A DNA stretch of 32,000 nucleotides from Vulcanisaeta distributa DSM 14429 (GCF_000148385.1 NC_014537.1:660001-692000); one strand, 5' to 3'. Shown: positions 5,205-23,803, counted from the stretch's first letter. The notes: a model not told the origin generated them from the letters alone. A program made the numbers and translations.

Positions 5205-5394
5205 TAAATAAGCATATGTAAGGAGTATTTAAGTTTTATATTTCTTAGGGGATTTGTAAATAAGTTATTTTTATTCCCTGGACGCTTATATATTAAATAC
5301 TTGATGAAAATAACCGGGAATACATATGATTATTTCCAAAAATTAATTACAACATATAATTAGATATTTATCGATAATATTAACAGTTAATGAT

Positions 5395-6402
5395 TCAGAT
5401 GCGCTTAATGACCTCCGCAGTAAAGGATTCAGTAGTATAATTGCCTCCTAGGTCGGGCGTGTGTATTCCCTGGCTTAGGGCGTTGATTACGGCATTTTCA
5501 ATGGCATTCCCTGCCATCACATAATTATTATTTCCCGTCTTTTCACCATACCACCTGAGCATCCATGCAGTACTTAGTATCATCGCCGTGGGGTTTGCAA
5601 TCCCCTTACCGGCTATGTCGAAGGCTGCGCCGTGTATTGGCTCGAACAATGCCTTATTATCGCCCACGTTGGCTGAGGGCGCGAGCCCTATGCTGCCGGT
5701 TACGTAGGCCGCCAAATCGCTTAGTATATCGCCATATAGGTTTGTCGTGACTATGATGTCGAAGTCCTGGGGCCTCCTGACGAGATCCATGACCGCTGCA
5801 TCTATGTACATTTCATTAATTGCCACCTCAGGATACTCCCTCGCAACTTCCCTAACGACACTCCTGAATAGGCCGTCTGACACCGTCAGTACATTGGCCT
5901 TATGCACGATGGTGACCCTCCTACGCCTAGTCCTCGCCATGTTGAGGGCCACCCTGGCAATGCGTTCACTGGCCCTCCTTGTTATTACCCTAAGGGCCAC
6001 TGCCGTGTCATTGCTAAGCATGTACTCGGCCCTCACGTAGACATCCTCGGTATTCTCACGCACTATGACTAAGTCCACGCCGTCTCTAACCGCCTTAATC
6101 CCTGGGTAATTCCTCGCAGGCCTGATGTTAGCATATAGATCGAGCCCCCTCCTTAATTTAACAACTACATCACCCGCACTCTCACCAACAGGACCCTTCA
6201 GTATTGCTTCGGCATTCTCTATCATTGGCCAGTACCTACTTGGTAATGCCTCCCCATACTTCCTAATTGCATTATCGCCGGCCTCAACGTAGGCAATATC
6301 GATGTTTAAGCCGTACTTAGACGCAGCCATCTTAAGAACTTCAATGGCTGACCTGGTCACCTCAGGCCCAATGCCGTCACCCTCAATTACGGCTATCCTC
6401 AT
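5395..6402 (-). CDS. leuB: 3-isopropylmalate dehydrogenase / homoisocitrate dehydrogenase family (beta-decarboxylating dehydrogenase)
   Basis: 335 aa with MRIAVIEGDGIGPEV, LVIVRENTEDVY, NLYGDILSDLAA and GLAPSANVG..ALFEPIHGAAFDIAGKGIANP. The BCAA gene neighbourhood supports the call. Confidence 0.85.
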   Translation of the reverse strand: MRIAVIEGDGIGPEVTRSAIEVLKMAASKYGLNIDIAYVEAGDNAIRKYGEALPSRYWPMIENAEAILKGPVGESAGDVVVKLRRGLDLYANIRPARNYPGIKAVRDGVDLVIVRENTEDVYVRAEYMLSNDTAVALRVITRRASERIARVALNMARTRRRRVTIVHKANVLTVSDGLFRSVVREVAREYPEVAINEMYIDAAVMDLVRRPQDFDIIVTTNLYGDILSDLAAYVTGSIGLAPSANVGDNKALFEPIHGAAFDIAGKGIANPTAMILSTAWMLRWYGEKTGNNNYVMAGNAIENAVINALSQGIHTPDLGGNYTTESFTAEVIKRI

Positions 6403-6502
6403 CGGGAGTAATTACATAGCCTATTTTTATGTATTGCCAACCTATAGAAAGTACTGATAATTCTAGATTAGCACTTAAAAATTCAAATCGTATGATTAAG
6501 CG

Positions 6503-6850
6503 ATGGCCCTACTTAAGTATGAGGAATCCAATTGGGAAAGGCTTGGAAATTTAATCTATAGAAAACACATGCACGGACTCAGGGTGACAGTTGCCCAATT
6601 CAAGCTGCTAAAGGGCTCCGTCGTCAAACCGCACTCCCATACCCATGAGCAGGTCTCGATAGTGGTCAAAGGCAGATTGAGGTTTACTGTGGATAATGAG
6701 GTGTACATAGCGGAGCCCGGTGATGTAGTTCATATACCCCCGAATACTATACATAGTGTTGAGGCTCTTGAGGATTCGCTCGTAATCGATGTTTACTCAC
6801 CAATTAGAGATGATTGGTTGAGGGGTGAGGATAGGTATTTGAGGGAGTAG
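6503..6850 (+). CDS. small cupin-domain protein
   Basis: 115 aa. The cupin motifs are HSHTHEQVSIVVKGRLRF and GDVVHIPPNTIHSVEA. ATG start, in an AT-rich upstream region. Confidence 0.7.
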   Translation: MALLKYEESNWERLGNLIYRKHMHGLRVTVAQFKLLKGSVVKPHSHTHEQVSIVVKGRLRFTVDNEVYIAEPGDVVHIPPNTIHSVEALEDSLVIDVYSPIRDDWLRGEDRYLRE

Positions 6851-6892
6851 GGTACTCTAAATTTTGAATGAAGCAAAATACTCATCGCAGTT

Positions 6893-8026
6893 TCAGTTCA
6901 ATTTGTCGTTACCGTGATTAAGCACCTCCATCACTATGCGCTTAATATCCTCCTCAGAAGCCCTAATGCCCATGTCACCCAACTCCTTAACCCTCCTTAG
7001 CACTGCACTAACAATGTCATCGCGTGGCTCAATACCCATGGACTTAAGGACATAAATTATCGAATGCCTACCACTGTGCTTTCCAACGACTATCCTCCTA
7101 TTCATACCCACTGCTCCCGGGTCTATTGGCTCGTATGTTAGTGGGTTCGAGAGGACTCCGTGAACGTGGATACCAGACTCATGCGAAAAGGCGTTAGCCC
7201 CAACAATGGCCTTGTTGGGTGGTACAGGTATCCCAAAGAGCTTAGAGACTAAATCAGAAACCTCCTTAATCTTCTCGAACCTGATCCCAACATCATAATT
7301 AAGTAGGAACCTCACGGCAGCCGCGATCTCCTCAAGCGCCGCATTGCCTGCTCTCTCGCCAACACCGTTTATAGTTCCATGGGCCTGGTCAGCCCCAGCC
7401 TCAATGGCAGCCACGCTATTTGCCACGGCCATCCCAAAGTCATCGTGACAATGCACACTCAGTAAGTAATTGCCCCTAACATTCTCCCTAACGAACCTAA
7501 CGAGTGATGCCATCTTACTTGGCCACATCACGCCTACGGTATCCGCAATATCGAGCCTATCAGCACCCGCATTAACAACCTCCTGGAAAACCCTGACCAG
7601 GAACTTAGGGTCACTCCTCGTCGCATCCTCCGCGCTGAATTCCACGGTTAGGCCATGGGACTTTGCATAACTTACTGCGTTCACGGCTGCCTCAACCACC
7701 TCCTCCCTATTCATCCTGAGTTTATACCTCATGTGTAGGTCTGACGTGGCTATGAAAATGTGTATGGCATTCACGTCGGCATCAATCGCCTTATCAATAT
7801 CCTCCCTCCTGGTCCTCGCCAACGCAATAACTTCCGAATTACTTACCTCCCTGGCTATTGACTTAACGGCCCTAAACTCACCCTCACTAACTATTGGAAA
7901 GCCAGCCTCAATAGAGTCGACACCCAACTCCTCAAGCTTTAACGCAATTAGTAACTTATCCTCGGGTTTCAGGGCAACACCAGGGGTTTGCTCACCATCC
8001 CTGAGCGTCGTATCTAACAGTCTCAC
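6893..8026 (-). CDS. 2-isopropylmalate synthase / homocitrate synthase family enzyme, short form without the C-terminal LeuA-dimer regulatory domain
   Basis: 377 aa with MRLLDTTLRDGEQTPGV, HCHDDFGMAVANSVAAIEAGA, GTINGVGERAGNAALEE and HESGIHVHG (DRE-TIM metallolyase fold). Substrate (IPMS or HCS) cannot be decided from sequence alone. Confidence 0.8.
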   Translation of the reverse strand: MRLLDTTLRDGEQTPGVALKPEDKLLIALKLEELGVDSIEAGFPIVSEGEFRAVKSIAREVSNSEVIALARTRREDIDKAIDADVNAIHIFIATSDLHMRYKLRMNREEVVEAAVNAVSYAKSHGLTVEFSAEDATRSDPKFLVRVFQEVVNAGADRLDIADTVGVMWPSKMASLVRFVRENVRGNYLLSVHCHDDFGMAVANSVAAIEAGADQAHGTINGVGERAGNAALEEIAAAVRFLLNYDVGIRFEKIKEVSDLVSKLFGIPVPPNKAIVGANAFSHESGIHVHGVLSNPLTYEPIDPGAVGMNRRIVVGKHSGRHSIIYVLKSMGIEPRDDIVSAVLRRVKELGDMGIRASEEDIKRIVMEVLNHGNDKLN

Positions 8027-8315
8027 GTATTTATTTCCAGGGGAAGCCCTAACTACGTCTCCCTGAGCAATCTAACCCACCGGATCATGTAATAAAAATA
8101 CCTTATTTAAGTATTTCCCTAAGATATAGATTTAACCATAACCGATTAGTGATTCACATTATATTAGTTATATGGCGGAAAAGCTTAAATATTCTATAAA
8201 TTGACTTATGTCTGATGAGGTGCTTTATTCTTTACGTATGATGCGGATGAAAATAATAGGGAAAGTAATGAGTTGAGTCCGCGGTCAAACCATGCGGTGA
8301 TTATGCATGGAGTGA

Positions 8316-10064
8316 GTGCGTCGGGTGATTATAGTGCCTAGGGCCGTTGATTTATTGGTTAGGGAGATGGAGGGCATGGGCGTTAGGGAGGTCTTTGGCA
8401 TTATTGGTGGCCAGATAATGCCGTTCTTTGATGCGTTATATAACTCTGATATTAAGGTTTATATGTTTAGACATGAGCAGGGCGCAATACATGCCGCGGA
8501 CGCCTACGGCAGGGTCATGAAGAGGCCCATGACCGTGGTCGTCACGTCAGGTCCAGGCGCCACAAACCTACTCACTGGGCTTGCAAACGCAATGATGGAT
8601 TCATCACCACTAATAGCAATAACCGGTCAGGTCCCAACTGCGTTCTTCGGGAGGGATGCGTTTCAGGAGACGGACATAGTTGGCGCGACCATGCCGGTCA
8701 CCAAGCACACATTCATGGTTAAGAGACCTGAGGACTTAGTCCCCGTGTTTAGGGCTGCTTATGAAATATCGATTGACGGTAGGCCGGGTCCAGTCGTCAT
8801 AGACTTGCCGAGGGATGTGCAGTTAACGGATGTCGACCCAGCAATTGTTAGGGGTAGGGTGATAAGGATAGTCAGGAAGGCAATCCCAGAGCCCGACCCC
8901 TCATTAATTGCCTATGCACTTAAGCTACTCCTAACTGCCGAGAGGCCCGTGATGCTGGTTGGCGGTGGTGTTTGCTGGAGTGGGGCGACTAATGAGGTCT
9001 TGACCCTCGCCGAGCTAATGGGCATGCCCATAGTCACCACACTGCCAGGTAAGAACTGCGTGCCTAGTAACCACCCACTGGTTATGGGTCCCTCGGGGAT
9101 GCACGGTAGGCTTGAGGCCGATGCAGCCATAATAAATGCCGACGTAATACTCGCCGTAGGTACGAGATTCAGTGATAGGACTGTGGGCAACTTCAATGAG
9201 TTCAGGAGGGGTAGGAAGATAATACATATAGACATTGATAGGAGTGAGATTGGTAAGAATGTCAAGCCTGAGGTCGGTATTGTCGGTGACGCTAAGGCAG
9301 TCTTATCAACCATGATTAAGCTAGTGCCCAAAGCCCTTGAGAGAAGGCATGATGCGTTCATTAAGTGGTTAAGGAGTATTAAGGAGAGTTATGAGGAGTA
9401 TAGGAGGAGGGTCGACATTAATGGGTTCGCACCATGGAAGGTCCTGAAGGTCCTTAGGGAGGTGATGCCGCCGTACTCGATAACCACGACGGGGGTTGGT
9501 AGCCACCAGATGTGGTGTGAGCTTCACTGGGACGTCTATGTGCCTGGAACCTTCATAACAAGTGCGGGCCTTGGGACAATGGGGTTTGGATTACCCGCAG
9601 CCCTGGGTGCGAAGATTGCCAGGCCTGGCGTGCCCGTGCTCGATATTGATGGTGATGGGTCATTCCAAATGACTATGCAGAACCTAGCCCTTGTCCGCGA
9701 GTACGGCCTACCCGTGATAGTGACTATATTTGACAATTCAACACTCATGCTCGTTAGGCATTGGCAGGTAATGCTGTATAATAAGAGGATAATCGCCGTG
9801 GACTTCAACGTAAACCCAGACTTCATGAAGATTGCCGAGGCCTACGGGATAGAGGGCGTTAGGCCGAGTAGCTATGATGAGTTGAGGAGTGCTGTGGCGA
9901 GGGCCGTTAGGAATAATGAGGCGTTGATTGTTGACGTAACCATTGATAGGGAGAGGGACTTCGTGCTACCCTTCGTGCCATCGGGCAAGTGGCTTGAGGA
10001 GGTCATACTACCGGAGGGCTTTAGGATCGACCTTAGGTACCCAGGTGATGACTATGGAGGGTGA
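8316..10064 (+). CDS. ilvB: acetolactate synthase (acetohydroxyacid synthase) large subunit
   Basis: 582 aa, GTG start. It has the TPP-enzyme N-terminal pattern (FGIIGGQIMPFFDAL, HEQGAIHAADAYGR, TSGPGATNL) and the TPP-binding motif DGDGSFQMTMQNL. It is followed by ilvN and ilvC. Confidence 0.9.
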   Translation: MRRVIIVPRAVDLLVREMEGMGVREVFGIIGGQIMPFFDALYNSDIKVYMFRHEQGAIHAADAYGRVMKRPMTVVVTSGPGATNLLTGLANAMMDSSPLIAITGQVPTAFFGRDAFQETDIVGATMPVTKHTFMVKRPEDLVPVFRAAYEISIDGRPGPVVIDLPRDVQLTDVDPAIVRGRVIRIVRKAIPEPDPSLIAYALKLLLTAERPVMLVGGGVCWSGATNEVLTLAELMGMPIVTTLPGKNCVPSNHPLVMGPSGMHGRLEADAAIINADVILAVGTRFSDRTVGNFNEFRRGRKIIHIDIDRSEIGKNVKPEVGIVGDAKAVLSTMIKLVPKALERRHDAFIKWLRSIKESYEEYRRRVDINGFAPWKVLKVLREVMPPYSITTTGVGSHQMWCELHWDVYVPGTFITSAGLGTMGFGLPAALGAKIARPGVPVLDIDGDGSFQMTMQNLALVREYGLPVIVTIFDNSTLMLVRHWQVMLYNKRIIAVDFNVNPDFMKIAEAYGIEGVRPSSYDELRSAVARAVRNNEALIVDVTIDRERDFVLPFVPSGKWLEEVILPEGFRIDLRYPGDDYGG

Positions 10065-10335
10065 CTTCTTGATAGAGGTCATAATGAGTAATGAGGTTAA
10101 CACATTCGATGCCGTAGTCAGGGCTATGAACGTGATCAGGAGGGGTAAGGTAACGATTAAGCACATGGTGATAGACATGAGTGACTCGGTGATCAAGGTC
10201 TCCATTAGGGCTAGGGGCGAGGAGGATGAGGTTAGGTGGGTCTGTAATAAACTTGATAAGCTCTACGATGTGGTAAATGTTAAATATATGCCCGAAGAAG
10301 TACACATGAATAAGGTGGTGATTAGTAATGGCTAG
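10048..10335 (+). CDS. ilvN: acetolactate synthase small (regulatory) subunit, minimal ACT-only form
   Basis: The ATG at 10048 overlaps the ilvB stop region. The ~95-aa product is MTMEGDFLIEVIMSNEVNTFDAVVRAMNVIRRGKVTIKHMVIDMSD..KLDKLYDVVNVKY, which is ACT-like and has the KL.DV..V ending typical of IlvN. Position between ilvB and ilvC supports it. The track ORF start at 9943 lies inside ilvB and is unlikely. Confidence 0.55.
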   Translation: MTMEGDFLIEVIMSNEVNTFDAVVRAMNVIRRGKVTIKHMVIDMSDSVIKVSIRARGEEDEVRWVCNKLDKLYDVVNVKYMPEEVHMNKVVISNG

Positions 10336-11311
10336 GATATACAAAGATGGGGATGCGGATCTATCGGTGATAAGGGGTAAGGTAGTGGCTGTGCTTGGTT
10401 ACGGCATTCAGGGTAGGGCGTGGGCCTTAAACATGAGGGATAGTGGTGTCAAGGTCATTGTTGGCGTCAGGCCTGGCAAGAGCTTTGACCTGGCTCGGCA
10501 GGAGGGCTTTGAGGTCTACCCAGTGGGTGATGCGGTTAGGAGGGCCGACATAATAGCGGTCCTACTACCCGATATGGTACAGCCAAGTGTTTGGGGGTCT
10601 GAGATCGCGCCGGGCCTTAGGCGTGGCATGACTGTGGTGTTTGCCCATGGCTTCAACATTAGGTTTGGGTTAATAAGGCCGCCAAGTGATGTGGACGTAG
10701 TCCTAATAGCGCCCAAAGCCCCAGGTAAGGCCGTTAGGGATGAGTTCGTTAGGGGTTGGGGAGTCCCGGCACTCGTCGCAGTTCACCAGGACTTCACGGG
10801 GAGTGCCCTGAAGACGGCATTGGCGATTGCCAAGGCCAATGGGTTCACGAGAGTGGGTGTAATAGAGACGACCTTCGCCGAGGAGACGGAGACCGACCTA
10901 ATCGGTGAGCAGAACGTGCTTGTTGGCGGGCTACTGCAGTTGTTGAGGTATGGTTTTGAGGTTATGGTGGAGCTCGGTTACCAACCTGAGGTGGCTTACT
11001 TCGAGGCCATTAATGAGGCTAAGCTAATAATGGACCTGATATGGGAGAGGGGACTCACTGGGATGCTTCTAGGTGTTAGTGAGACTGCCAGGTACGGTGG
11101 CTTGACGGTTGGGCCGTACGTAATTAATGAGGATGTTAAGAGGAGGATGAAGGAGGCTGCCGAGAAGGTTAGAAGTGGCGAATTTGCTAAGGAGTGGATT
11201 GCGGAGTATCAGAGGGGTGCGCCAAGGCTCAGGGAGTTACTTGAGCAGGTTAGTAATAGCCAGGTTGAGAGGGTTGGCGAGTTCCTAAGGCAGTTAATGA
11301 GAAGCAAGTAA
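10328..11311 (+). CDS. ilvC: ketol-acid reductoisomerase (class I)
   Basis: 327 aa with GYGIQGRAWALNMRDSG (the NADP-binding GxGxxG region), FAHGFNI and EETETDLIGEQNVLVGG. It overlaps ilvN by 8 nt. Confidence 0.9.
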   Translation: MARIYKDGDADLSVIRGKVVAVLGYGIQGRAWALNMRDSGVKVIVGVRPGKSFDLARQEGFEVYPVGDAVRRADIIAVLLPDMVQPSVWGSEIAPGLRRGMTVVFAHGFNIRFGLIRPPSDVDVVLIAPKAPGKAVRDEFVRGWGVPALVAVHQDFTGSALKTALAIAKANGFTRVGVIETTFAEETETDLIGEQNVLVGGLLQLLRYGFEVMVELGYQPEVAYFEAINEAKLIMDLIWERGLTGMLLGVSETARYGGLTVGPYVINEDVKRRMKEAAEKVRSGEFAKEWIAEYQRGAPRLRELLEQVSNSQVERVGEFLRQLMRSK

Positions 11312-11515
11312 GCCCCTATTCTAAAATTCATTAACCTTCAAAAATAAACAATCCATAATTCTCGCCCATTACCCACTGTATGACTGAAGGGCCACCGGAC
11401 CGCTTATTAATTATGATAATTATGAATTATAAATCATGATTATATATTATGAATAATTTTCAATAATTTAGAGGTTAGTCTATTGACTTATTAATCTTTC
11501 ATTTTTGACTTAGGC

Positions 11516-11548: not shown

Positions 11549-14500
11549 GTGAATTATAGGGCACTGGATGTTAATCGCGTGAAGAGGCCGTTGGGTAGGC
11601 TTAAGATTACGCCGGAAATGTGCATTGGCGATGAACTGTGCGTTAAGAGGTGCCCAATGGGTATCCTGGAGCTAACTAGGGAGGAGGTTAATCCAAGGGG
11701 TTATCATTATGTCAGGATTAAGCCCGGTAAGGAGGTTGATTGCGTGGCATGTGGTATATGCGAAAAGGTCTGCCCAACAAACGCCATATATGTCGAGCAT
11801 GAGGAGGAAATAACAATCAAGGATTACTTAATGAAGATTGACAAGACTAAGGTCACGCAGGAGAGTGCCACTAACAATAGGGTCCTTGTGATTGGTGGTG
11901 GTATTGCTGGTGTTGAGGCTGCTCTTGCTTTGGCTGGCATGGGTTATAGGGTTACGCTTGTTGAGAAGTCCCCGGCCATCGGCGGTAAGATGGCAATGCT
12001 CGACAAAACATTCCCAACCCTCGACTGCTCAATATGCATAGAAGGACCATTAATGAGCGATACCTCGAATAATAGGAACATCGAGGTATTAACGCTGGCA
12101 GAATTAATGGAGTTAAAAGGTGAACCAGGCCATTATAGGGCTAAGATCCTCGTCAAGCCGAGGTACGTGACCAACGAATGCACTAAGTGCGGGTTGTGTG
12201 AGGGCGTGTGCCCCGTGGTGGTTCCAAGCGAGTATAATGCGGGTATTGGCCTTAGGAAGGCCATATACCTACCATTCCCACAGGCGGAGCCCGGCATCTA
12301 CGCCATAGACCCAGACCTATGCCTAAACAAGCCCCCTGAGAACATAGCCTGCAATAGGTGCGTTAGTGTCTGTGAGCCTAGGACCATACTATTCACCATG
12401 ATGCCCAGGATAATCGAGAGGGAGGTGGCGGCAGTCATAGTGGCCACGGGATACGAACTAGAGGGTGGCGAGGTATTGACTAAGTATGGCTATGGAAAAC
12501 ACCCTGACGTACTCACGGCAATGGAGTTCGAGAGGCTCGTCAACGCCACGGGACCATCATTAGGCGAGGTGGTTAAACTAAGTAATCATGGACACCCGAG
12601 GAAGGTCCTATTCATATCCTGCATAGGCTCTAGGACGAGTAGGGCAAACCCATACTGCTCAAAGGTCTGTTGCGAGTACCTGCTTAAGCAAGCCATTTAC
12701 GCGAAGAATCACGGCATTGATGACGTCACCATATTATACATGAATGACGTTAGGACCTACGGCAAGGGTTTCGAGAACCTATACCAAAGGGCTGTTGAGA
12801 GAGGCGTCAGGATAGTCCATGGTAGGCCATTGGTAATAGGCCCTGTCAACGGTTCAATAAGGGTTAAGTACGAGGATACGCGGAGTGGGGAGGTCAGGGT
12901 TGAGGATTACGACATGGTTGTCCTGGCACCAACCATGAGGCCACCTAAGGACATGCAGAGACTAGCCAATGCATTGGGTCTCGAACTTGATAGGTACGGC
13001 TTCATCAAGGTAAACCCGGCAAATCCCGTTGAGACAAACATCCCCGGCATATTCGTGGCAGGGAGCGCCTCCGGGCCCACGGACATTACGGAGTCAGTAC
13101 TCATGGGCTTAGCCGCGGCGGCCCAGGCCGTGGGCTTCATGGGCAAATCCATAATAGAGACTGAGGAGTTTAGTGAAACCATAGAGGCGGAGAAGCCGAG
13201 GATAGGCGTCTTTGTTTGCCACTGCGGTAGTAATATAGCCGGTATCGCCGATGTGAACGAGTTGGTCAAGTTTTCGAGGGGATTGCCTGGCGTGGTCCAT
13301 GCCGAGGACATACCCTTCGCCTGCTCGAAGGCTGGGTTAGACCGAGTCGCCGAGTCAATAAAGAGGAATAACCTTAACAGAGTCGTTGTTGCGGCCTGCT
13401 CACCGGCAACTCACCTTAGGTTTTTCCGGGATTCTGCGAGGAGGGCTGGTCTTAATCCGTATCTCGTGGAGATGACGAACATTAGGAACCTGGATACGTG
13501 GGTCCACAACGATAGGAAGGTGGCCACAGAAAAGGCAAAAGACATGATAAGAATGGCCGTGGCCAAGGCATCACTCATGAGGCCCTTCAGACCCGAGAAG
13601 CTCGGTATAATTAAGAGGGCGTTAGTCATCGGTTGCGGCCCCGCGGGGCTAGCGGCTGTTAATGCCCTCGTTAATGCGGGTGTTGAGACCATGGTGGTTG
13701 AGCTAGGGAGTAAGTGCGGTGGTCCTTATCTAAACGACTTCGTGATTAGGTACTTACCAGAGGGTATCAGGGCTAAGGAGGTGGTTAACAAATTGCTTAA
13801 GGTTCTTGAGAACCCCAGGGTTAAGGTTTATTACGGAACCACGGTTAAGGACGTGTCTGGCTTCACGGGTAACTTCCACGTTATCCTAAGCAACGGTGTC
13901 GAACTCGACGTAGGCGCAATAATAGTGGCCACGGGAGCCAGCCCTGTCAATACCGTTAACTACAAAGCTGGCAATGGACTTAATGTCATGACTATACACG
14001 ACTTAATCAATGGTGGTTTAAACGTCGGTAATGACGTGTTATTCATCGACCTATGTAACAAGCCGTATTGCCAAGCCGTAATGTTTAACACTGCGTTAAC
14101 CCTGAGGAGGGCAGGTAAGAATGTGTACGTGGTCGTTAGGGATATCATGATGGTTGGGACACAGTATGAGGACTTGTATAGGGAGGTTAGGAGGGCTGGC
14201 GTTACAATACTGAGGGTTCCAAGGGATGGCAATGTCATGAACCACGTGGTGCTCAATCACGACACTGCCGTGATTAGGGATGTGGAGCTTGGTGAAGACG
14301 TGACAGTACGCATAGACTCAGTCATACTTAACACGCCCATGAAGCCCAACTCAGACGAGGTTTCAAAGATATTGAGGCTTTCTAAGGATCAGGAGGGCTT
14401 CCTGATGGAGGCCCACCCGAAGCTCGGCCCGGTGGACACCATGACCCCGGGAATATTCGTAGCCGGTGCTGTTAGGGCTCATAGGGGCTTTGGCGAGGCT

Positions 14501-15229
14501 GTCCTGGAGGGTTACGCGGCAGCTGCCAGGGCATTGACGCTATTGTCTAGGGACTACATAATTAAGGAGGTCTCAGTGCCAAGGGTGGACCCGGGTAAAT
14601 GCGTTGGTTGCTTGCTATGCGTTAAAGCTTGCCCGTACGGCGCCATCAAGGGTGAGCCTGGTAAGCCCGTCACGATAAACCCCGCCGCTTGCCAGGGCTG
14701 TGGTTCATGTGTTGGTGAGTGCCCATACGGTGCATTGGATATGGACCTGCTTAGTGATGATGCTATTTTGGCTCAGGTTGAGGCTGCCTTGGCTGAGGAG
14801 CCTGAGAAGAAGGTGATAATGTTCACATGCGCCTACTGCTCCTACTACGCGGCCGATAACACGGGGATACTGAAGCTTCAGTATCCACCGCATATTAGGA
14901 TAATTAGGTTACCATGTAGCTCAAGGCTTAATTGGAGGCATGTTAAGCGTGCTTTTGAGCTTGGTGCTGCCGGTGTGTTTGTGACTGGTTGTAGGCTTGG
15001 TGACTGCCACTACATAACCGCAAACTACAACACAGTAAGAAGATTCGAAAACTGGAAAAAGAGACTAAAAAACATAGGCGTGAGAGAAGAAAGATTCCAA
15101 CTGAGACTATTCGGTGCGCCGGACGTTAAGGACTTCATAGAGGCTGCTAATGAGGCGAAGAGGATTGTTGAAACAGTGACTAGGGAAGAGATTGAAATGA
15201 CAAAACAAAAAATCAAGCAAATAAGGTGA
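11549..15229 (+). CDS. tandem HdrA-like flavoprotein (two FAD modules, several 4Fe-4S ferredoxin domains) fused to a C-terminal MvhD-like domain
   Basis: 1226 aa. N-terminal ferredoxin: CVACGICEKVCP. Module 1: VIGGGIAGVEAALALAGMGYRVTLVEK..GGKMAMLDKTFPTLDCSICI, CTKCGLCEGVCP, FISCIGSR..YCSKVCC. HdrA N-terminal-type domain: IGVFVCHCGSNIAG..VVVAACSPATHLRFF..NIRNLDTWVH. Module 2: ALVIGCGPAGLAAVNALVNAG. Ferredoxin: CVGCLLCVKACP and CQGCGSCVGECP. MvhD-like: VIMFTCAYCSYYAADNTG..RLPCSSRLNW..GAAGVFVTGCRLGDCHY. Confidence 0.8.
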   Translation: MNYRALDVNRVKRPLGRLKITPEMCIGDELCVKRCPMGILELTREEVNPRGYHYVRIKPGKEVDCVACGICEKVCPTNAIYVEHEEEITIKDYLMKIDKTKVTQESATNNRVLVIGGGIAGVEAALALAGMGYRVTLVEKSPAIGGKMAMLDKTFPTLDCSICIEGPLMSDTSNNRNIEVLTLAELMELKGEPGHYRAKILVKPRYVTNECTKCGLCEGVCPVVVPSEYNAGIGLRKAIYLPFPQAEPGIYAIDPDLCLNKPPENIACNRCVSVCEPRTILFTMMPRIIEREVAAVIVATGYELEGGEVLTKYGYGKHPDVLTAMEFERLVNATGPSLGEVVKLSNHGHPRKVLFISCIGSRTSRANPYCSKVCCEYLLKQAIYAKNHGIDDVTILYMNDVRTYGKGFENLYQRAVERGVRIVHGRPLVIGPVNGSIRVKYEDTRSGEVRVEDYDMVVLAPTMRPPKDMQRLANALGLELDRYGFIKVNPANPVETNIPGIFVAGSASGPTDITESVLMGLAAAAQAVGFMGKSIIETEEFSETIEAEKPRIGVFVCHCGSNIAGIADVNELVKFSRGLPGVVHAEDIPFACSKAGLDRVAESIKRNNLNRVVVAACSPATHLRFFRDSARRAGLNPYLVEMTNIRNLDTWVHNDRKVATEKAKDMIRMAVAKASLMRPFRPEKLGIIKRALVIGCGPAGLAAVNALVNAGVETMVVELGSKCGGPYLNDFVIRYLPEGIRAKEVVNKLLKVLENPRVKVYYGTTVKDVSGFTGNFHVILSNGVELDVGAIIVATGASPVNTVNYKAGNGLNVMTIHDLINGGLNVGNDVLFIDLCNKPYCQAVMFNTALTLRRAGKNVYVVVRDIMMVGTQYEDLYREVRRAGVTILRVPRDGNVMNHVVLNHDTAVIRDVELGEDVTVRIDSVILNTPMKPNSDEVSKILRLSKDQEGFLMEAHPKLGPVDTMTPGIFVAGAVRAHRGFGEAVLEGYAAAARALTLLSRDYIIKEVSVPRVDPGKCVGCLLCVKACPYGAIKGEPGKPVTINPAACQGCGSCVGECPYGALDMDLLSDDAILAQVEAALAEEPEKKVIMFTCAYCSYYAADNTGILKLQYPPHIRIIRLPCSSRLNWRHVKRAFELGAAGVFVTGCRLGDCHYITANYNTVRRFENWKKRLKNIGVREERFQLRLFGAPDVKDFIEAANEAKRIVETVTREEIEMTKQKIKQIR

Positions 15230-15534
15230 TGAAAATGGCCGTGGCAAACCCCACACTTAAGGAGGAGTTACTCAGGTTTGAACCCACGGCATCACTATGC
15301 TACCAATGCGGTACGTGCACCACGGTTTGCCCAATGTCTGAGTTCGGGTTGAACACAAGGTTGGTAATGAAGTTGGCGAACTTAGGGGTAATAAATGATT
15401 GGGTGCGTAAAGTCATATGGCTATGCACGGGTTGTGGCTTATGTCAGGAGAACTGTCCAAACGAAATTAGAATACCCAACGTGATTAGGTTCATCAGGTC
15501 AAAGGTGATAATCGAGCAACGAAGAGGTAGGTAA
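15226..15534 (+). CDS. small HdrC-like 2x[4Fe-4S] ferredoxin-type protein
   Basis: 102 aa with CYQCGTCTTVCP and CTGCGLCQENCP. The GTG at 15226, or the ATG at 15229, overlaps the upstream stop (translational coupling). Confidence 0.6.
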   Translation: MMKMAVANPTLKEELLRFEPTASLCYQCGTCTTVCPMSEFGLNTRLVMKLANLGVINDWVRKVIWLCTGCGLCQENCPNEIRIPNVIRFIRSKVIIEQRRGR

Positions 15535-15603: not shown

Positions 15604-16752
15604 ATGACCCTCAAGCCAGAGATTAAGTGGGGATTGGAAGGCATTTATGTTAAGGAAAGTAGCATATGCCTAATAGACCTTGACAATGCTAAGATATACT
15701 ACAGGGGTTATGAACTGAGTGACCTCGCCCTTAAATCCACATTCGAGGAAACCGCATATTAATACTCAGGGGTAAACTACCGAGCAGGACAGAGCTAAGG
15801 GAGTTCACTAGTGAATTGTCTTCAAATAGAGAATTACCCAAAGAATTACTGGCGCTCCTCAGGGGTTTACCCAATGGCCTTAGGCCCATTGACGTACTTA
15901 GACTAAGCATCGATTACCTGGGCACCCTCGACAGGGAGGCAATGTCTAAGGGACCTAATGAAGAGGCTAAGGCAATTAGGCTAATAGCCATGGCGCCGAC
16001 CGTTGTCGCAACTACCATAGGCTGACCATGGATAGCTCAGTGCCGAGTCCCAGGACAGACCTAAACCATGTGGCTAATTATTATTACATGTTTTTCGGTA
16101 GGGAACCCAGTGATGAGGAGCTTAGGGCTTTGGAGACTATGTTCATAACGTACATGGAGCACGGCATGAACAACTCCTCGTTCACAGCCGTGACCGTGGC
16201 ATCCACATTAACAGACATATACTCAGTGATTGTGGCAGCACTCTCAAGCTTAAAGGGCCCATTACATGGCGGCGCTAACTTTGAGGCCTTGAAGACGATA
16301 ATCGAGGTCGGTGACCCAAGCCGCGCGGAGGAGTATGTCATTGATAAGGTGAGGAGGGGTGAAAGATCATAGGGTTTGGGCATAGGGTGTATAAGAGGTT
16401 TGCAGATCCAAGGACAACCTACCTAAAGGACCTGGCTAGGAAGTTAGCGGTGAGTAGGGGCGGTTATTATTTAAGACTTTTCGAGACGGCGAGGGCGCTT
16501 GAGGATGCGGTTGAGAAGCACCTGGGCCATAAGGGCGTACATGCCAATACCGATCTCTACGCATCCCTAATATACTACATGCTGGGCTTTCCAATGGAGT
16601 ATAACCCAGCCAATTTCGCGCTGGCCAGGATAGTTGGTTGGGTGGCTCACGTAATTGAGTACTGGGGCATGAATGGCAAATTAATAAGGCCTATGGAGTA
16701 CTACGTGGGTCCACGCGACTTAAAGTATTTACCAATTAGTGAAAGGGAGTGA
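15604..16752 (+). pseudogene. gltA: citrate synthase, interrupted by three frame changes
   Basis: Four collinear segments in frames 1, 0, 2 and 1. Segment 1: MTLKPEIKWGLEGIYVKESSICLIDLDNAKIYYRGYELSDLALKSTFEETAY. Segment 2: LILRGKLPSRTELREFTSELSSNRELPKE... Segment 3: ...YHRLTMDSSVPSPRTDLNHVANYYYMFFG..EHGMNNSSF..GPLHGGAN. Segment 4: IIGFGHRVYKRFADPR..GWVAHVIEYW. Together they make a ~380-aa archaeal citrate synthase. Breaks are near 15759, 16010 and 16363-16369. Confidence 0.8.
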
Positions 16753-16897: not shown

Positions 16898-17458
16898 ATG
16901 ACGGGTGAAAGTTATGAAATGGTGTTCTTCGGCAGAGGTGGGCAGGGCGCCGTAACCGCAGCGCAGATAATGGCGTTGGCGGCTGTGGGTAAGGGATTAT
17001 ACGCATTAGCATACCCAGAGTTTGGACCAGAGAGGAGAGGTGCGCCTGTTAGGTCGTACTTGGCAATATCCAATGAGCCAATAGAGGTTAGGGAGCCCAT
17101 AGAGAGGCCTAATATATCCATAGTCTTTGGCCCAGACCTACTAAGGGTTAACCCAGAAATACCTGAGAGGACGCGTGATTACATAATCGTTAACTCAAGG
17201 CGTTATGAGACTGTTGAGCCGTATTTAAGGGGTTTTGGCGGTGGTATAGTTCATATAAATGCGTATGACCTATCAACTAAGTACTTGGGTAGGGCTATAG
17301 TTAATACGGCGATGCTTGGGGCGTTATTAAAGGTCTTTGATGCCTTAACGGTTGATGATGTCGCTAATGCGGTGCTGAGGGTCTTTGGCGGTAAATTGGG
17401 TAAGGCGAATGCGGAGCTCATTAGGGTAGCGTATAATGAGGCGCGGGTGATTAGATGA
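16898..17458 (+). CDS. porG: 2-oxoacid (pyruvate/2-ketoisovalerate):ferredoxin oxidoreductase gamma subunit
   Basis: 186 aa with FGRGGQGAVTAAQIMALAA and EFGPERRGAPV. It is the first gene of a four-gene overlapping operon. Confidence 0.85.
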   Translation: MTGESYEMVFFGRGGQGAVTAAQIMALAAVGKGLYALAYPEFGPERRGAPVRSYLAISNEPIEVREPIERPNISIVFGPDLLRVNPEIPERTRDYIIVNSRRYETVEPYLRGFGGGIVHINAYDLSTKYLGRAIVNTAMLGALLKVFDALTVDDVANAVLRVFGGKLGKANAELIRVAYNEARVIR

Positions 17459-17808
17459 GCACAGGCGCCTGGGCGCCAAAGAGCATCAAGTTGCTGGGTT
17501 GGAGGGAGTTACCTGCCATTGGTGGTTATGTAATAGAGCCGATGAGCACGGCAAGGAATAACACGGGTTCCTGGAGGACCGAGAAGCCCGTGATAAACCA
17601 AGACCTGTGCATTAGGTGTAGGACCTGCTGGACATACTGCCCCGAGCCGGCGATACTGGAGCTCGATAAGCCCTACATTACTAAGGATGGTAGGAAATAC
17701 GACATAACCTACGAGATTGATTACGACCACTGCAAGGGCTGTGGGATATGCGCTCACGAATGCCCAGTCAAGGCGATAACCATGATACCCGAGGGTGTTG
17801 AAGAATGA
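17455..17808 (+). CDS. porD: 2-oxoacid:ferredoxin oxidoreductase delta subunit (2x[4Fe-4S])
   Basis: 117 aa with CIRCRTCWTYCP and CKGCGICAHECP. It has 4-nt overlaps with both neighbours. Confidence 0.85.
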   Translation: MSTGAWAPKSIKLLGWRELPAIGGYVIEPMSTARNNTGSWRTEKPVINQDLCIRCRTCWTYCPEPAILELDKPYITKDGRKYDITYEIDYDHCKGCGICAHECPVKAITMIPEGVEE

Positions 17809-19034
17809 GCTTGGCAACGGTTGAGTCAAGGATTAGGAGGGGTATCGTCAGGGATAGGATAGCCGTAACCTCAAACCACGCGGCAGCCTACGCCGCTAGG
17901 GATGCCGAGGTCGACGTTGTGGCGGCATACCCAATAACACCGCAGACGCCAGCCGTTGAGAAGATCGCGGATTTTATAGCAAATGGTGAGATGAGCGCCG
18001 AGTACATACCCGTTGAGTCGGAGCACAGCGCACTATCAGCGTTAATAGGGGCCTCGGCGGCCGGCGCCAGGACGTTCACCGCAACCTCAAGCCAGGGACT
18101 CTTCTATATGTTTGAATTACTCTACATAGCGTCGGGCCTGAGGCTTCCAATAGTCATGGCCCTGGCCACGAGGGCTGCCTCCGCGCCCATATGCATTCAT
18201 GGTGATTACCAGGACTTAGCCTCGGTTAGGGACTCTGGGTGGATAGTCATGATTGCCTCCTCTGCTCAGGAGGTTTATGATTCGATTATTATGGCGTATA
18301 GGATTGCCGAGGATGGTAGGGTCCTGCTGCCCGTCATGGTCGCGTACGACGGATTCCTAATGAGCCACACCACAGAACCCGTGGAGTTGTATGACCTGGA
18401 CGTGATTAGGAGGTTTGCGCCAAAGAAGATAGATAGGCCAATACTAGATAGCAGGAGGCCAATAACGATGGGCGTGATGGCAGTGCCTGAGTGGTACTAT
18501 GAAATCAAGTACCAATTAATCGATGCAATGCATAACTCAATGAGTGTTATTAAGGAGGTTCATGATGAGTTCAATAAGACCTTTGGTAGGGATTATAGGT
18601 TAATTGAGGGGTATAGAATTGACGATGCGGACTACGTGGTACTATCCTACGGCGGCATCTGGGGCAATACCAAGAGGGCTGTTGACCTGGCTAGGAAGAG
18701 GGGTGTTAGGGCTGGCGCCCTGAGACTCAGGTTATTTAGGCCATTCCCAACCGATGAGTTAGTGAGGGCTGTTGAGGGTGTTAAGGCTGTGGCAGTAATC
18801 GATAGGGCGGTCAGCCCAGGGGCGCCGATCGAGGGTCCCGTGGCATTGGAGGTCGCGTCAGCGCTAAGGTCCAGGGGCTTGGATGTGCCTGTCGTTTCTG
18901 TGGTTCACGGGCTGGGCCAGAGGACCGTGTTTTCGAGGGATATTGAGGAATTGATCAGGATATTAAACACATCGGAATTAACGAAACTAATGAGGAATAC
19001 GCTGTACATGGGTGTGAGGGAGTATGGTGGTTAA
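17805..19034 (+). CDS. porA: 2-oxoacid:ferredoxin oxidoreductase alpha subunit
   Basis: 409 aa with AAYPITPQT, ESEHSALSALIGASAAGARTFTATSSQGL and the expected operon position. Confidence 0.85.
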   Translation: MSLATVESRIRRGIVRDRIAVTSNHAAAYAARDAEVDVVAAYPITPQTPAVEKIADFIANGEMSAEYIPVESEHSALSALIGASAAGARTFTATSSQGLFYMFELLYIASGLRLPIVMALATRAASAPICIHGDYQDLASVRDSGWIVMIASSAQEVYDSIIMAYRIAEDGRVLLPVMVAYDGFLMSHTTEPVELYDLDVIRRFAPKKIDRPILDSRRPITMGVMAVPEWYYEIKYQLIDAMHNSMSVIKEVHDEFNKTFGRDYRLIEGYRIDDADYVVLSYGGIWGNTKRAVDLARKRGVRAGALRLRLFRPFPTDELVRAVEGVKAVAVIDRAVSPGAPIEGPVALEVASALRSRGLDVPVVSVVHGLGQRTVFSRDIEELIRILNTSELTKLMRNTLYMGVREYGG

Positions 19035-19995
19035 GGTTAGGCTTGCCAAGTCGCTCTTTGATATACCCAGGGAGGAATACTTAGCACCTGGCCACACGGC
19101 TTGCCCGGCCTGCGGTGCTACCCTGGCCGCTAGGTTAATACTCAAGGCATCAGGGCCAGACGTGATCATAGTGAACCCAACGGGTTGTCTGGAGGTCACG
19201 ACAACAATATACCCATACACGGCGTGGGGAGTCCCATACATACACGTGGCCTTTGAGAACGCGGGTGCCGTTGCATCGGGTATTGAGGCCGCCATAAAGG
19301 CCCTTAATAAGAATGGCTTGTTGAGGAGGAGTACCAGGGTCATAGCCATTGCTGGTGATGGTGGTACTTTTGATATTGGTTTGCAGTCTCTTAGTGGTAT
19401 GCTTGAGCGTGGTCATGGTGTGCTCTACGTGCTTTATGATAATGAGGCATACATGAACACCGGGATACAAAGAAGCGGAGGAACACCTAAGTTCGCGAAA
19501 ACAACCACAATGCCTGCTGGAACTATCATTAGAGGTAAAATACAGAGGAAGAAGGACATCATGAGCATCGTCATTGCCCACCACATTCCATATGCGGCAA
19601 CGGCTAACGTAGCCTACCCAATTGACTTAGTGAATAAGGTTAGGAAGGCGTTGTCGTACCTCGATGAGGGTCCTGCCTTCATACACGTACTAGCACCATG
19701 CCCACCAGGCTGGGGATTTCCCGATGAGAGAATGATTGAGATTGCCAGGCTCGCCACAGAGACAGGCTACTTCCCACTATACGAGTGGGACCATGATAGA
19801 TTAATCATAAATCCACCAAGCGACATGTATATGGATAGAAGACTGCGTAAGCCATTAAGGGAGTTTGTTAAAGCTCAGTCCAGGTGGTCTCACATAACTG
19901 ATGAGGAAATAAAGGAGCTTGAGAAGGATGTTGATGACTTCCTGAATTACCTGTGGCGATTATCAATGAGCTCAGGGGTTTCGATCCTCTACTGA
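19024..19995 (+). CDS. porB: 2-oxoacid:ferredoxin oxidoreductase beta subunit (TPP-binding)
   Basis: 323 aa with GHTACPACG and IAGDGGTFDIGLQSLSG..YDNEAYMNTG (TPP motif). It overlaps porA by 11 nt. Confidence 0.85.
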   Translation: MVVKVRLAKSLFDIPREEYLAPGHTACPACGATLAARLILKASGPDVIIVNPTGCLEVTTTIYPYTAWGVPYIHVAFENAGAVASGIEAAIKALNKNGLLRRSTRVIAIAGDGGTFDIGLQSLSGMLERGHGVLYVLYDNEAYMNTGIQRSGGTPKFAKTTTMPAGTIIRGKIQRKKDIMSIVIAHHIPYAATANVAYPIDLVNKVRKALSYLDEGPAFIHVLAPCPPGWGFPDERMIEIARLATETGYFPLYEWDHDRLIINPPSDMYMDRRLRKPLREFVKAQSRWSHITDEEIKELEKDVDDFLNYLWRLSMSSGVSILY

Positions 19996-20130: not shown

Positions 20131-21381
20131 ATGGGCTTAACACTAACCGAGAAAATACTAAGCAGGGCGTCAGGTAAATACGTAAGTCCTGGTGATGTTG
20201 TAGAGATAAATGTTGATTTAGCCGCATTTCATGACCTCACGGGCTATCACGTGGTTGAGGTTATGGAGAAGATGGGAGTTGTTAAGGTTTGGGATGTGAA
20301 TAGGTTTGTCCTGGCCTTCGACCACCTGGCCCCACCACCCACGGAGAGGGCAGCCGAGATTCAGGTTGGGCTTAGGAAGTTCGCGAAGGCAGCCGGCATT
20401 AAGTTCTTCCATGATGTTGGCGATGGAATACTGCATCAGCTACTCCTTGATCATTACGCATTGCCCGGCCAGGTAGTTATGGCCGCCGACAGCCATACGA
20501 CGACTGTCGGCGCCGTGGGCGCCTTTGCCCAGGGGCTTGGGGCCAGTGACATAGCCGCCATAGTGATAACAGGTAAGACCTGGCTCGTGGTCCCTGAACC
20601 ATTTAGGATCAGGATACTCGGTAGGCCAGGCCCTGGGGTTTACGGTAAGGATGTTGCATTACACTTACTTAGTGTGTTTAGGGCTGAGGGGCTTAATGGT
20701 AAGTCTGCTGAGTTCTTTGTTGAGGATCCAGGGGCATTCCCAATGGATTATAGGGCCACCGTATCCAACATGGGTATCGAGCTCGGCCTCGATGCGGCCA
20801 TGTTCATACCTGACAGCGAGACTGTAAGGCATATTAAGGAGAGGAGGGGTGTTGAGGTCAAGCCAGTGACGCCAGACCCAGATGCTAGGTATGTCGATGG
20901 TTATGATGTGGAGTTGAATAGGCTCGAACCACTCGTGGCCACGCCGCATAGTGTTGATAATGTTAAGTCGATAAGTGAGGTTGAGGGTTTGGATGTGGAT
21001 TACGTATTCATAGGCTCATGCACAAATGGTAGGCTTAGCGATATTGAGGTTGCGGCTAAGATACTTAGGAATGGCAAAGTGAGGAGTAGGTGCGTGGCAA
21101 TACCCGCATCGCGCGAGATCTACATAAGGGCTATGGAACTGGGGTACATAGATACGTTGGTGAGGGCTGGCTGTGTGGTGACTTACGGGACTTGCGGCCC
21201 ATGCCTTGGTGGTCACTTTGGATTAGTCGGCCCTGGGGAGGTGGCTGTGTCTACGGGCAGTAGGAACTTCAAGGGTAGAATGGGTTCGCCAGAGGGTAAG
21301 GTTTACCTGGCTAACGCTGCCGTGGCTGCCGCAGCAGCGTTGAATGGTAAATTCGTTGATCCCAGGAAGTACCTTACGTAA
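20131..21381 (+). CDS. leuC: 3-isopropylmalate dehydratase / homoaconitase large subunit (archaeal short type)
   Basis: 416 aa with [33 protein letters not shown] and TCGPCLGG (aconitase-family Fe-S ligands). Confidence 0.85.
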
Positions 21382-21472
21382 GTTAGGATTTATTAACCAT
21401 TCATTATAAGGGTAGTTTTTGTGGGTAATCCTAGGGTTAGGGGTAGGATTGGGCATATATGGGTGATTAGCC

Positions 21473-21859
21473 ATGGCGGTAAGGGTGAGGTTGAGATTAA
21501 AGGTGAGGGTGAGGATAAGGGCAGGGGAGAGGAGGATAATCACGACTGCGCTGGTCAATACGGGCTTTGAGACCGAGAGGCCACAGCTATTAATACCAAT
21601 TTGGCTAGGGCTTTATCGCTATGGCCACCGCCAGATAATGCCTACCTAGTCGAGTTAGGCACCGCCGGTGGCCCAATAAGGGAATACGTAGTACCAAATT
21701 CCGTGCAGGTGGCGGTGATAACCGACGATAAGGAGACCCGAGATATAACCTGCGATGCAGTCATATCGCATATTGAGGAGAAGGTTATCATAAATGATAA
21801 GTTATAAGTTATGTGAGGAGTTGGGTATTGTTATCCTGACGGCCGGTAGTGGTAAGTAG
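21473..21859 (+). pseudogene. decayed clan AA (retropepsin-like, DTGF-type) aspartic protease gene
   Basis: Three collinear segments. Frame 2: MAVRVRLRLKVRVRIRAGERRIITTALVNTGFETERPQLLIP. Frame 1: LARALSLWPPPDNAYLVELGTAGGPIREYVVPNSVQVAVITDD..VISHIEEKVIINDKL. Frame 2: CEELGIVILTAGSGK. NTGF sits where this family has DTGF. The second break is a visible 7-bp tandem duplication, AAGTTAT AAGTTAT, at 21799-21812. Confidence 0.4.
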
Positions 21860-23733: not shown

Positions 23734-23779
23734 TAAATTAAGTAAAATCTTTAAAACAATCCTTTATTCACTTATCATT

Positions 23780-23803
23780 TATTAACACTGGTATTAACAC
23801 TGG
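23780..23803. repeat. perfect 12-bp tandem duplication (TATTAACACTGG x2)
   Basis: Read directly at 23780-23791 and 23792-23803, in the convergent intergenic region between the secreted protein gene and leuD. Confidence 0.9.

Follow-up and report, generated by a model that had tools for sequence, protein, structure and literature searches.

The DNA analyzed here, referred to below as the window, is a stretch of 32,000 nucleotides (bases 660,001–692,000) of the genome of Vulcanisaeta distributa DSM 14429 (GCF_000148385.1, NC_014537.1), which is represented by a single contig of 2,374,137 bp and is 99.99% complete. The subject of the analysis is a gene at window positions 11549–15229 which, according to the calling and translation of the open reading frames, begins with a GTG codon and encodes a single chain of 1226 amino acids, combining a ferredoxin, two units related to the heterodisulfide reductase subunit HdrA, and a domain related to MvhD. 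Its stop codon overlaps the start codon of a second gene, as GTGA, and this gene (15226–15534) encodes the HdrC-like partner of 102 amino acids that the initial annotation had placed directly after the fusion, recognized by a partial match to TIGR03290 and by its identity to a paralog. The nearest intact redox partner, a 2-oxoacid:ferredoxin oxidoreductase (OFOR) of the porCDAB type with four subunits (gamma, delta, alpha, and beta; 16898–19995), identified by NCBIfam matches, begins 1364 bp further downstream, in agreement with the distance of approximately 1.4 kb given previously. All of these features lie on the plus strand.

Domain Architecture

The order of the domains in the 1226-residue chain, as initially read from the sequence, was borne out by the reading frame, the profile searches, the matches to chains of the Protein Data Bank (PDB), and a structure model. 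Residues 1–100 (window 11549–11848) form a ferredoxin domain with two clusters, in which the Pfam and NCBIfam profiles place a Fer4 dicluster at residues 23–100. The first HdrA module (module 1; residues 101–548; 11849–13192) has a fold of the thioredoxin reductase (TrxR) type that binds flavin adenine dinucleotide (FAD), with an inserted 2x[4Fe-4S] ferredoxin, and was delimited by structural matching with VIA and by its motifs. This module is followed by a cysteine domain of the type found at the N-terminus of HdrA (residues 549–688; 13193–13612), located by phmmer and containing Cys557, Cys559, Cys592, and Cys617, and then by the TrxR fold of the second module (module 2; residues 689–1000; 13613–14548), which was recognized by structural match and motifs. 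The chain closes with a second 2x[4Fe-4S] ferredoxin domain (residues 1001–1084; 14549–14800), delimited by Pfam and by alignment to HdrA, and with an MvhD/FlpD domain (residues 1085–1226; 14801–15229).

The Pyr_redox_2 profile matches the chain in three stretches (residues 111–520 and about 691–996), the TRX_reduct profile matches residues 691–996 (1e-23), and a second Fer4 dicluster lies at residues 1012–1065 (Pfam). The FlpD/MvhD family PF02662 is matched by residues 1089–1208 with 130.4 bits, against a cut-off of 22.3 (4.6e-38), while MvhD chains of the PDB match residues 1086–1202 (1e-24 to 1e-26), and the domain has the conserved cysteines Cys1094, Cys1097, Cys1123, Cys1148, and Cys1153. 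When the PDB was searched with the 1226-residue sequence, the matches were MvhD chains and ordinary HdrA chains of up to 671 amino acids only. Within the latter, residues 108–479 of the query align to the TrxR unit with its inserted ferredoxin, residues 539–695 to the N-terminal domain (chain residues 3–158; 1e-39, phmmer), and residues 940–1084 to chain residues 513–656, that is, the end of the TrxR unit and the C-terminal ferredoxin.

The highest-scoring NCBIfam model for the protein is HdrA2 (NF040770), with 996.8 bits over four stretches. The HdrA2 of Methanosarcina acetivorans is likewise a fusion of HdrA with MvhD, but has a single HdrA unit, and its profile comprises 777 positions. This match is the principal argument for regarding the protein as a subunit of a genuine heterodisulfide reductase acting on CoM-S-S-CoB, as in the methanogens. 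However, the score falls below the curated cut-off of 1100, no match to McrA or MCR_alpha was found in the 99.99%-complete genome, and HdrB is absent from the locus, so that this reading is given practically no weight.

The Two HdrA Modules

Residues 101–1226 were modeled with AlphaFold2 (AF2) from an alignment of 73 sequences, and the mean predicted local distance difference test (pLDDT) of 86.4 and the predicted TM-score (pTM) of 0.88 indicate one compact body, modeled with confidence. Module 1 (model residues 7–433) superimposes on HdrA residues 149–574 with a Z score of 50.2, a root-mean-square deviation (rmsd) of 2.0 Å, and 45% identity (VIA-align), while module 2 (model 448–983; protein 548–1083) matches the whole HdrA chain of 5ODC (residues 2–652) with a Z score of 35.9 and an rmsd of 2.3 Å over 527 aligned residues. 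The core of module 2 (model residues 587–903) also matches thioredoxin reductases, with Z scores of 22–23. Together with the Pyr_redox_2 and TRX_reduct profiles, these structural matches indicate that an FAD-type fold is present in the second module, the absence of which had been raised in the initial annotation as the finding that would count against a pseudo-dimer.

The cofactor motifs are distributed unequally between the two modules. Module 1 carries TLDC160SIC163, in which Cys163 corresponds to Cys197 of the 5ODC HdrA, together with the cluster motif CIGSR...CSKVCC (Cys358, Cys370, Cys374, and Cys375) and Lys380, the equivalent of the HdrA lysine that contacts N5 of the flavin, which is present in all 73 family sequences. 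All of the motifs of module 1 are, in fact, invariant in the family alignment. The dinucleotide-binding motifs of module 2 are intact (GCGPAG, an acidic residue after strand 2, GG, and GIFVAG), and this module lacks not only the TLDCxxC segment, as noted initially, but also the inserted ferredoxin, the active-site lysine, and the four-cysteine cluster motif. The last of these is a peculiarity of the window subfamily, in which a deletion of eight residues leaves two of the four cluster cysteines, while the motif is kept in 68 of the 73 family members and is deleted in no other group, two further members having single substitutions in it. The position matching Lys380 is occupied in module 2 by glutamine in 57 of the 73 sequences and by threonine (Thr848) in the window subfamily, where the GPK(D/N) motif is also replaced. 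The candidate binding site for NAD(P)H in module 2 was rejected, given that, as judged from the sequence, no glycine-rich motif is found where the second Rossmann loop would lie.

The two halves of the protein are complementary in their sequence features, since module 1 has the counterpart of Cys197 and module 2 has the N-terminal domain. The fold matches and these complementary motifs support the view of the protein as an HdrA pseudo-dimer that is linked covalently and carries a fused MvhD, and, as part of the best overall explanation, the single chain would on balance be expected to fold as an asymmetric pseudo-dimer of this kind. By analogy with BamE, a fused HdrA dimer discussed below, module 2 is most likely the structural, non-bifurcating half of the pair, and would not represent a second catalytic site.

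A Large Family and Its Known Relatives

A search of 5.8 billion proteins with the 1226-residue query returned 2587 matches, and almost all of the best 120 of these are 1119–1166 amino acids long (the exceptions being a partial sequence of 1093 amino acids and the 1214-residue protein P0004), with 43–81% identity and a coverage of about 90% of the query. The taxa found among the best 120 include the Sulfolobales, Nitrososphaerota, Aigarchaeota, Thermoplasmata, Chloroflexota, Armatimonadota, and Elusimicrobiota, among others. At least 596 loci of the family were recovered when a single genome of each species was scanned, and a rough survey detected a gene encoding a CCG-domain protein within 6 kb in at least about 50 of 80 family loci, several of which hold more than one HdrA gene. 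HdrA fusions of more than 1100 amino acids, the distribution of which the initial annotation had proposed to survey, are very widespread.

Proteins of this general type have also been described in the literature. Fused HdrA is known from the anaerobic methanotrophic (ANME) archaea and from the MetFV-Hdr complex of Moorella, where an intramolecular heterodimer was proposed on the basis of a complementary Cys197 and N-terminal domain (Chadwick et al., PMC9012536), and double-HdrA fusions with a C-terminal MvhD are common in the TACK archaea (Padalko et al., PMC11237513). The window protein shares with the ANME HdrA3 and HdrA4, the HdrA of the Moorella MetFV-HdrABC-MvhD complex, and the TACK fusions the presence of two HdrA units in one polypeptide, with the N-terminal domain and Cys197 in complementary positions, and with the TACK fusions the C-terminal MvhD as well. 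In the ANME HdrA3 and HdrA4, however, the first unit contributes the N-terminal domain and the second Cys197, which is the reverse of the order found here, and the partners are also different.

The closest precedent in architecture is provided by the cryo-electron microscopy of the class II benzoyl-CoA reductase of Geobacter metallireducens (bioRxiv 10.64898/2026.04.10.717634), in which BamE is described as "a fused HdrA dimer". In BamE, TrxR1 holds the bifurcating FAD, with Lys280 and the pair Cys59–Cys62, and TrxR2 holds a structural, non-bifurcating FAD, with Gln768, while BamD, which resembles HdrBC, delivers the high-potential electron to an electron transfer flavoprotein (ETF) and the inserted ferredoxin supplies the low-potential consumer (bioRxiv 10.64898/2026.04.10.717634). 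The invariant Lys380 in the family alignment, the glutamine in 57 of its 73 sequences, and the cysteine pair at residues 55 and 58 of a paralog with no N-terminal extension indicate that the family shares this layout, where the correspondence with BamE is drawn from the residue numbers of the preprint rather than from an alignment.

On the same basis, the window protein resembles BamE in being a fused HdrA dimer in one chain, with a cysteine pair near residue 60 of TrxR1, a lysine at the bifurcating FAD, and a second TrxR unit that is most likely non-bifurcating and structural, and the paralog with no extension also starts directly with TrxR1, as BamE does. As in the description of BamE, two TrxR units lie in one chain, and only the first has the hallmarks of a bifurcating FAD. 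The likeness would extend to the entry of electrons through a C-terminal ferredoxin with an adaptor of the MvhD type, and to the inserted ferredoxin as the supplier of the low-potential consumer. In Geobacter, by contrast, MvhD is a separate protein (BamF), which is fused in the window protein, and the consumer is BamBC, the place of which would be taken by an OFOR. The window copy also differs from the BamE system in the absence of both BamD/HdrB and the ETF, in the additional ferredoxin at its N-terminus, and, within module 2, in the loss of the E7-type cluster next to the second FAD and the presence of threonine instead of glutamine.

The HdrA of the methanogen HdrABC-MvhAGD complexes (PDB 5ODC, 8RVU, and 7BKB) is similar in the fold of both modules (Z scores of 50 and 36) and in the cofactor motifs of module 1, and its N-terminal domain cluster is completed by a cysteine from the other TrxR unit, an arrangement with which the sequence features of the window protein are compatible. 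The methanogen protein is nevertheless a homodimer of chains of 650 amino acids, in contrast with the single asymmetric chain of 1226, and its complex relies on the noncubane clusters of HdrB and on the CoM-S-S-CoB substrate, neither of which is found at the window locus, in a host without Mcr.

The pseudo-dimer proposed in the initial annotation is supported by these precedents, while its possible novelty is not, in view of the size of the family, the published accounts (PMC9012536, PMC11237513), and BamE. The annotation had allowed that the fusion might already belong to a characterized family with a partner encoded elsewhere, and this is, in large part, what was found, in the form of a large family, a characterized relative in architecture (BamE), and a paralog in the same genome accompanied by HdrC-HdrB, EtfAB, and an OFOR. 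The tandem fusion of HdrA with MvhD is already published, and the new features are those of this particular copy, that is, its fusion with an OFOR delta ferredoxin, the loss of HdrB and Etf, and the loss of the cluster in module 2.

The Paralogous Operon and the Origin of the Window Gene

The paralog lies at genome positions 2,130,353–2,133,745 and encodes a protein of 1130 amino acids, 64% identical to residues 108–1226 of the window protein. It belongs to an operon of eight genes (2,127,259–2,136,652), which encode the delta, alpha, beta, and gamma subunits of a Kor-type OFOR, the tandem HdrA-MvhD fusion (HdrAA-MvhD), an HdrC-HdrB fusion of 374 amino acids, EtfA, and EtfB, and thus mirror the BamD (an HdrBC fusion) and ETF of the Geobacter system. 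This operon is also found in three congeners, and, with an HdrAA that is 44–46% identical, in the Dehalococcoidia, the Anaerolineae, other Chloroflexota, and the Elusimicrobiota, while OFOR genes adjoin HdrAA in loci of the Asgard archaea and the Calditrichia. No description or characterized member of the OFOR-HdrAA-HdrCB-EtfAB operon was found in a search of the full-text literature.

The window copy and this canonical paralog share their domain order, the motifs of module 1, and the association with an OFOR. The canonical paralog differs in that its delta subunit is a protein of its own, the complete HdrC-HdrB fusion and EtfAB are present, and the four-cysteine motif of module 2 is intact. 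In the phylogenetic tree, the window protein, its ortholog in the genome G011, and P0004 form a clade that is sister, with 100% support, to the canonical clade of Vulcanisaeta, and both together are sister to sequences of the Sulfolobales. By the evidence of the sequences, the window gene is a duplicate, within the Vulcanisaeta lineage, of the HdrAA-MvhD of the paralogous operon. One metagenomic sequence from ENA (P0005; 1119 amino acids, on a contig of 4.9 kb) is a mosaic of the two types, being 90–100% identical to the canonical paralog outside the region that corresponds to window residues of about 790–930, and, within it, 68–90% identical to the window type and 32–43% identical to the paralog. 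This pattern may reflect a chimera of the metagenome assembly, or else a conversion event between the two paralogous genes.

The two ends of the window unit reveal what distinguishes the duplicate from its source. Residues 1–100 are 43% identical (E value 6e-27) to the OFOR delta subunit of the paralogous operon, 50% identical to the OFOR delta of G011, and only 33% identical to the adjacent porD, which identifies the N-terminal domain, from its sequence, as a homologue of an OFOR delta subunit, an assignment more specific than that of a generic ferredoxin. Its first cluster motif (residues 25–36; window 11621–11656) reads CxxDxxCxxxCP, with aspartate for the second cysteine, and this variant is conserved in all of the orthologs of the window type, while the parental OFOR delta has the usual CxxCxxCxxxCP. 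In ferredoxins of the Pyrococcus type, the substitution of aspartate for cysteine changes the properties of the cluster. The variant suggests, for the fused ferredoxin, a first cluster that is ligated by aspartate or contains three iron atoms. No in-frame N-terminal ferredoxin was found in the 43 other family loci in which the start of TrxR1 was located by motif, nor in some related loci with alignments that begin at query residues 12–20.

The short HdrC keeps two complete CxxCxxCxxxCP motifs and lacks the C-terminal half of HdrC, matching positions 2–74 of the 144 in TIGR03290 with 60.8 bits, below the cut-off of 160. It is 51% identical to residues 5–90 of the HdrC-HdrB fusion of the paralog, and is conserved in the congeners, with 74–83% identity. 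No remnants of HdrB or Etf were detected by tblastn downstream of the short hdrC.

The locus probably arose by duplication of the operon comprising OFOR (delta, alpha, beta, and gamma), HdrAA-MvhD, HdrC-HdrB, and EtfAB, which persists elsewhere in this genome. As the parental order is delta, alpha, beta, gamma, and hdrAA, the loss of the alpha, beta, and gamma genes would have brought the delta ferredoxin to the N-terminus of HdrAA, where it was fused. In the duplicate, HdrB and Etf would then have been lost, together with the vestigial cluster of module 2. HdrB is, accordingly, absent through a derived loss that concerns this lineage-specific duplicate, and not as a property of the fusion as such.

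Distribution and Selection

The window type was found only within the genus, where it occurs in G011 (81% identical) and as fragments in G002, G003, G004, G006, G008, and G009, and the closest named relative of the 1226-residue protein is that of Vulcanisaeta souniana (81%). The complete congeneric genome G005 yielded no copy, and the searches of other families of the order were likewise negative. The metagenomic protein P0004 (1214 amino acids, 65% identical) shares all of its derived features. The window and paralog loci coexist in G000 and G011. A separate HdrA-like gene of about 461 amino acids, 45–47% identical to module 1, occurs in G011 (C1:1703312–1704580), G005, G003, G006, G002, G020, and G023, while the same query detected no such gene in the genome to which the window belongs.

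The comparison with G011 yielded a ratio of nonsynonymous to synonymous divergence (dN/dS) of 0.12 for the whole gene and of 0.05–0.15 for each domain, with values of 0.08 in the N-terminal ferredoxin, 0.05 in the N-terminal-type cysteine domain, 0.12 in module 2, and 0.05 in the C-terminal ferredoxin; these ratios are rough, since dS is about 1 and close to saturation, although the constraint is clear. All of the domains are clearly under purifying selection, the fused ferredoxin and module 2 among them, and constraint is likewise evident in the short HdrC, with pN of 0.15 and pS of 0.79.

These values bear directly on the possibility that the window gene, together with the short hdrC, is a decaying duplicate on the way to pseudogenization, like the neighboring citrate synthase. 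The loss of HdrB, Etf, and one cluster motif would be compatible with decay, as would the pseudogene directly downstream and the absence of the copy from some congeners, such as the complete genome G005. The reading frames are intact, however, the subfamily is maintained down to 65% identity (P0004), and the low dN/dS in every domain largely refutes this explanation, which is considered very improbable.

Genomic Context and Partners

The initial annotation had noted the absence of HdrB, hydrogenase, and formate dehydrogenase from the window, and this was corroborated by profile searches and tblastn, which found no CCG/HdrB protein, hydrogenase, or formate dehydrogenase there. When the search for hdrB and CCG proteins was extended to the whole genome, as had been suggested, none was found to be dedicated to the window locus, and the HdrC-HdrB fusion proved to sit in the operon of the paralog. 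The other CCG proteins of the genome resemble DsrK, GlcF, or TfrB, except for one stand-alone protein beside a GlcD-like gene. This stand-alone protein (2,003,094–2,004,044) was considered as a dedicated HdrB acting in trans and was judged to be an unlikely one, given that its position beside a GlcD-like oxidase makes it look like a subunit of a lactate or glycolate dehydrogenase.

The gene order ilvB, ilvC, HdrAA, hdrC, porCDAB, leuC is kept in G011, G006, and G002. In G011, the gap between hdrC and porC is about 294 bp, and the citrate synthase pseudogene is absent. V. souniana has no such pseudogene between the two genes. In the window, this pseudogene (15604–16752, plus strand) has an in-frame stop codon in its N-terminal part, followed by two changes of frame, and G006 retains a portion of it, while an intact citrate synthase paralog, 38–42% identical, lies at genome positions 1,738,429–1,739,124. 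The block formed by HdrAA, hdrC, and the por genes is flanked on both sides (903–11311 and 20131–26124) by genes of 2-oxoacid and branched-chain amino acid metabolism, including parts of an archaeal glutamate synthase (GOGAT), isocitrate or isopropylmalate dehydrogenase (IDH/IPMDH), homocitrate or isopropylmalate synthase-like genes, ilvB, ilvC, and leuC/leuD-like genes, a context that bears on the 2-oxoacid used by the adjacent OFOR. A cluster of AT-rich AWTYATGA repeats is located at window positions 11409–11452, about 100–140 nucleotides upstream of the GTG start.

The relationship with the paralogous operon raises the possibility that the window protein is an alternative isoform of its A subunit, which, instead of acting with the products of the adjacent genes, would join the complex encoded by that operon, with its Kor-type delta domain docked on the alpha, beta, and gamma subunits of that OFOR, and HdrCB and EtfAB supplied in trans, leaving the short HdrC as a spare or regulatory protein. 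The greater identity of the fused ferredoxin to the paralog-type delta (43–50%) than to porD (33%) is what would be expected of such an isoform, and module 1, which binds HdrC in the known complexes, is fully conserved, while both loci are found together in G000 and G011. Against this, translation of the short HdrC is coupled to that of the window gene and its sequence shows purifying selection, the synteny with porCDAB is kept in the genus, and the paralogous operon has a delta subunit and an HdrAA of its own. The isoform is regarded as unlikely.

Proposed Electron Path

The reading that is considered probable, although far from assured, is that the window gene encodes a paralog of the fused HdrA dimers of the BamE type, functional and specific to its lineage, which would serve as a bifurcating core wired to an OFOR. 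The flavin-based bifurcating or confurcating role suggested in the initial annotation appears to be the best interpretation of a protein in which the hallmarks of module 1 are intact. Module 1 would provide the Hdr-type bifurcating FAD, with Lys380, the pair Cys160/Cys163, its own four-cysteine cluster, and the inserted ferredoxin, while module 2 would contribute the cluster of the N-terminal-type domain, the C-terminal ferredoxin, and the MvhD entry port, with its own flavin site mainly structural. The loss of the cluster of module 2 is in keeping with the TrxR2 unit of BamE, which has been assigned a structural role.

By analogy with HdrA and BamE, electrons would be split at the FAD of module 1. 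The low-potential path would run from the cluster of the N-terminal-type domain to the inserted ferredoxin, and from there to the fused delta ferredoxin and the OFOR, which may be either the adjacent Por/Vor enzyme or one of the Kor type. This path would favor reductive carboxylation, or, in reverse, drain electrons from the oxidation of 2-oxoacids. The high-potential path would lead through the cluster of module 1 and the 102-residue HdrC core to an acceptor other than the thiol/disulfide site of HdrB.

A number of observations weigh against this scheme. As the locus has neither HdrB nor Etf, it lacks the high-potential acceptor that bifurcation needs. As regards a donor at the MvhD domain, the only large subunit of a NiFe hydrogenase in the genome is 1.47 Mb away, and no FrhB was found in the genome. 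The fused ferredoxin is closer to a Kor-type delta than to the adjacent porD, and Por has a delta of its own, which makes the OFOR partner ambiguous, and the pseudogene of 1.1 kb separates hdrC from porC in the window.

Some of the same observations would suit a simpler arrangement, in which the protein, once HdrB and Etf were lost, became a non-bifurcating conduit, a wire of flavin and iron-sulfur centers, similar to a large polyferredoxin, that connects an OFOR with one other carrier, with no energetic splitting. The missing high-potential acceptor module would then pose no difficulty, and the loss of the module 2 cluster and the aspartate in the first cluster motif of the fused ferredoxin would also be accommodated. 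A simple wire, however, needs none of the bifurcation hallmarks that are intact and constrained here, that is, Lys380, Cys160/Cys163, two exit routes, and the MvhD entry, and the conduit is accordingly thought to be improbable.

A bolder version of the bifurcating core wired to an OFOR, which can be put forward only tentatively and is unlikely to hold in full, is that of an HdrB-independent bifurcase with a mini-HdrC, docked on an OFOR through its delta ferredoxin, which would drive electrons of a potential below that of ferredoxin into reductive carboxylation, and pass the high-potential electron to a new kind of acceptor. If this were the case, the carboxylation would be the synthesis of pyruvate or 2-oxoisovalerate for the flanking ilv and leu genes, and Hdr-type bifurcation would be tied directly to the fixation of CO2 in an organism that is not a methanogen.

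Significance

Fused HdrA dimers are now known as the bifurcating core of widely differing enzyme systems, such as the benzoyl-CoA reductase and, probably, the MetFV-Hdr complex. The commonest context of the close relatives of the window protein is an OFOR with HdrCB and ETF, a system of which no studied member was found. The window represents a natural deletion experiment within one genome, in which the bifurcating half has been kept and joined to an OFOR subunit, while HdrB, the ETF, and the cluster of the second module have been dispensed with.

The window copy supports a structural role for the second HdrA unit, and suggests that the conserved partner on the low-potential side is the OFOR. 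The two genes also offer a compact target for the biochemistry of Hdr-type bifurcation in a setting with no thiol/disulfide site. The main value of the locus is, then, that of a natural minimal form of the unstudied Hdr system linked to the OFOR.

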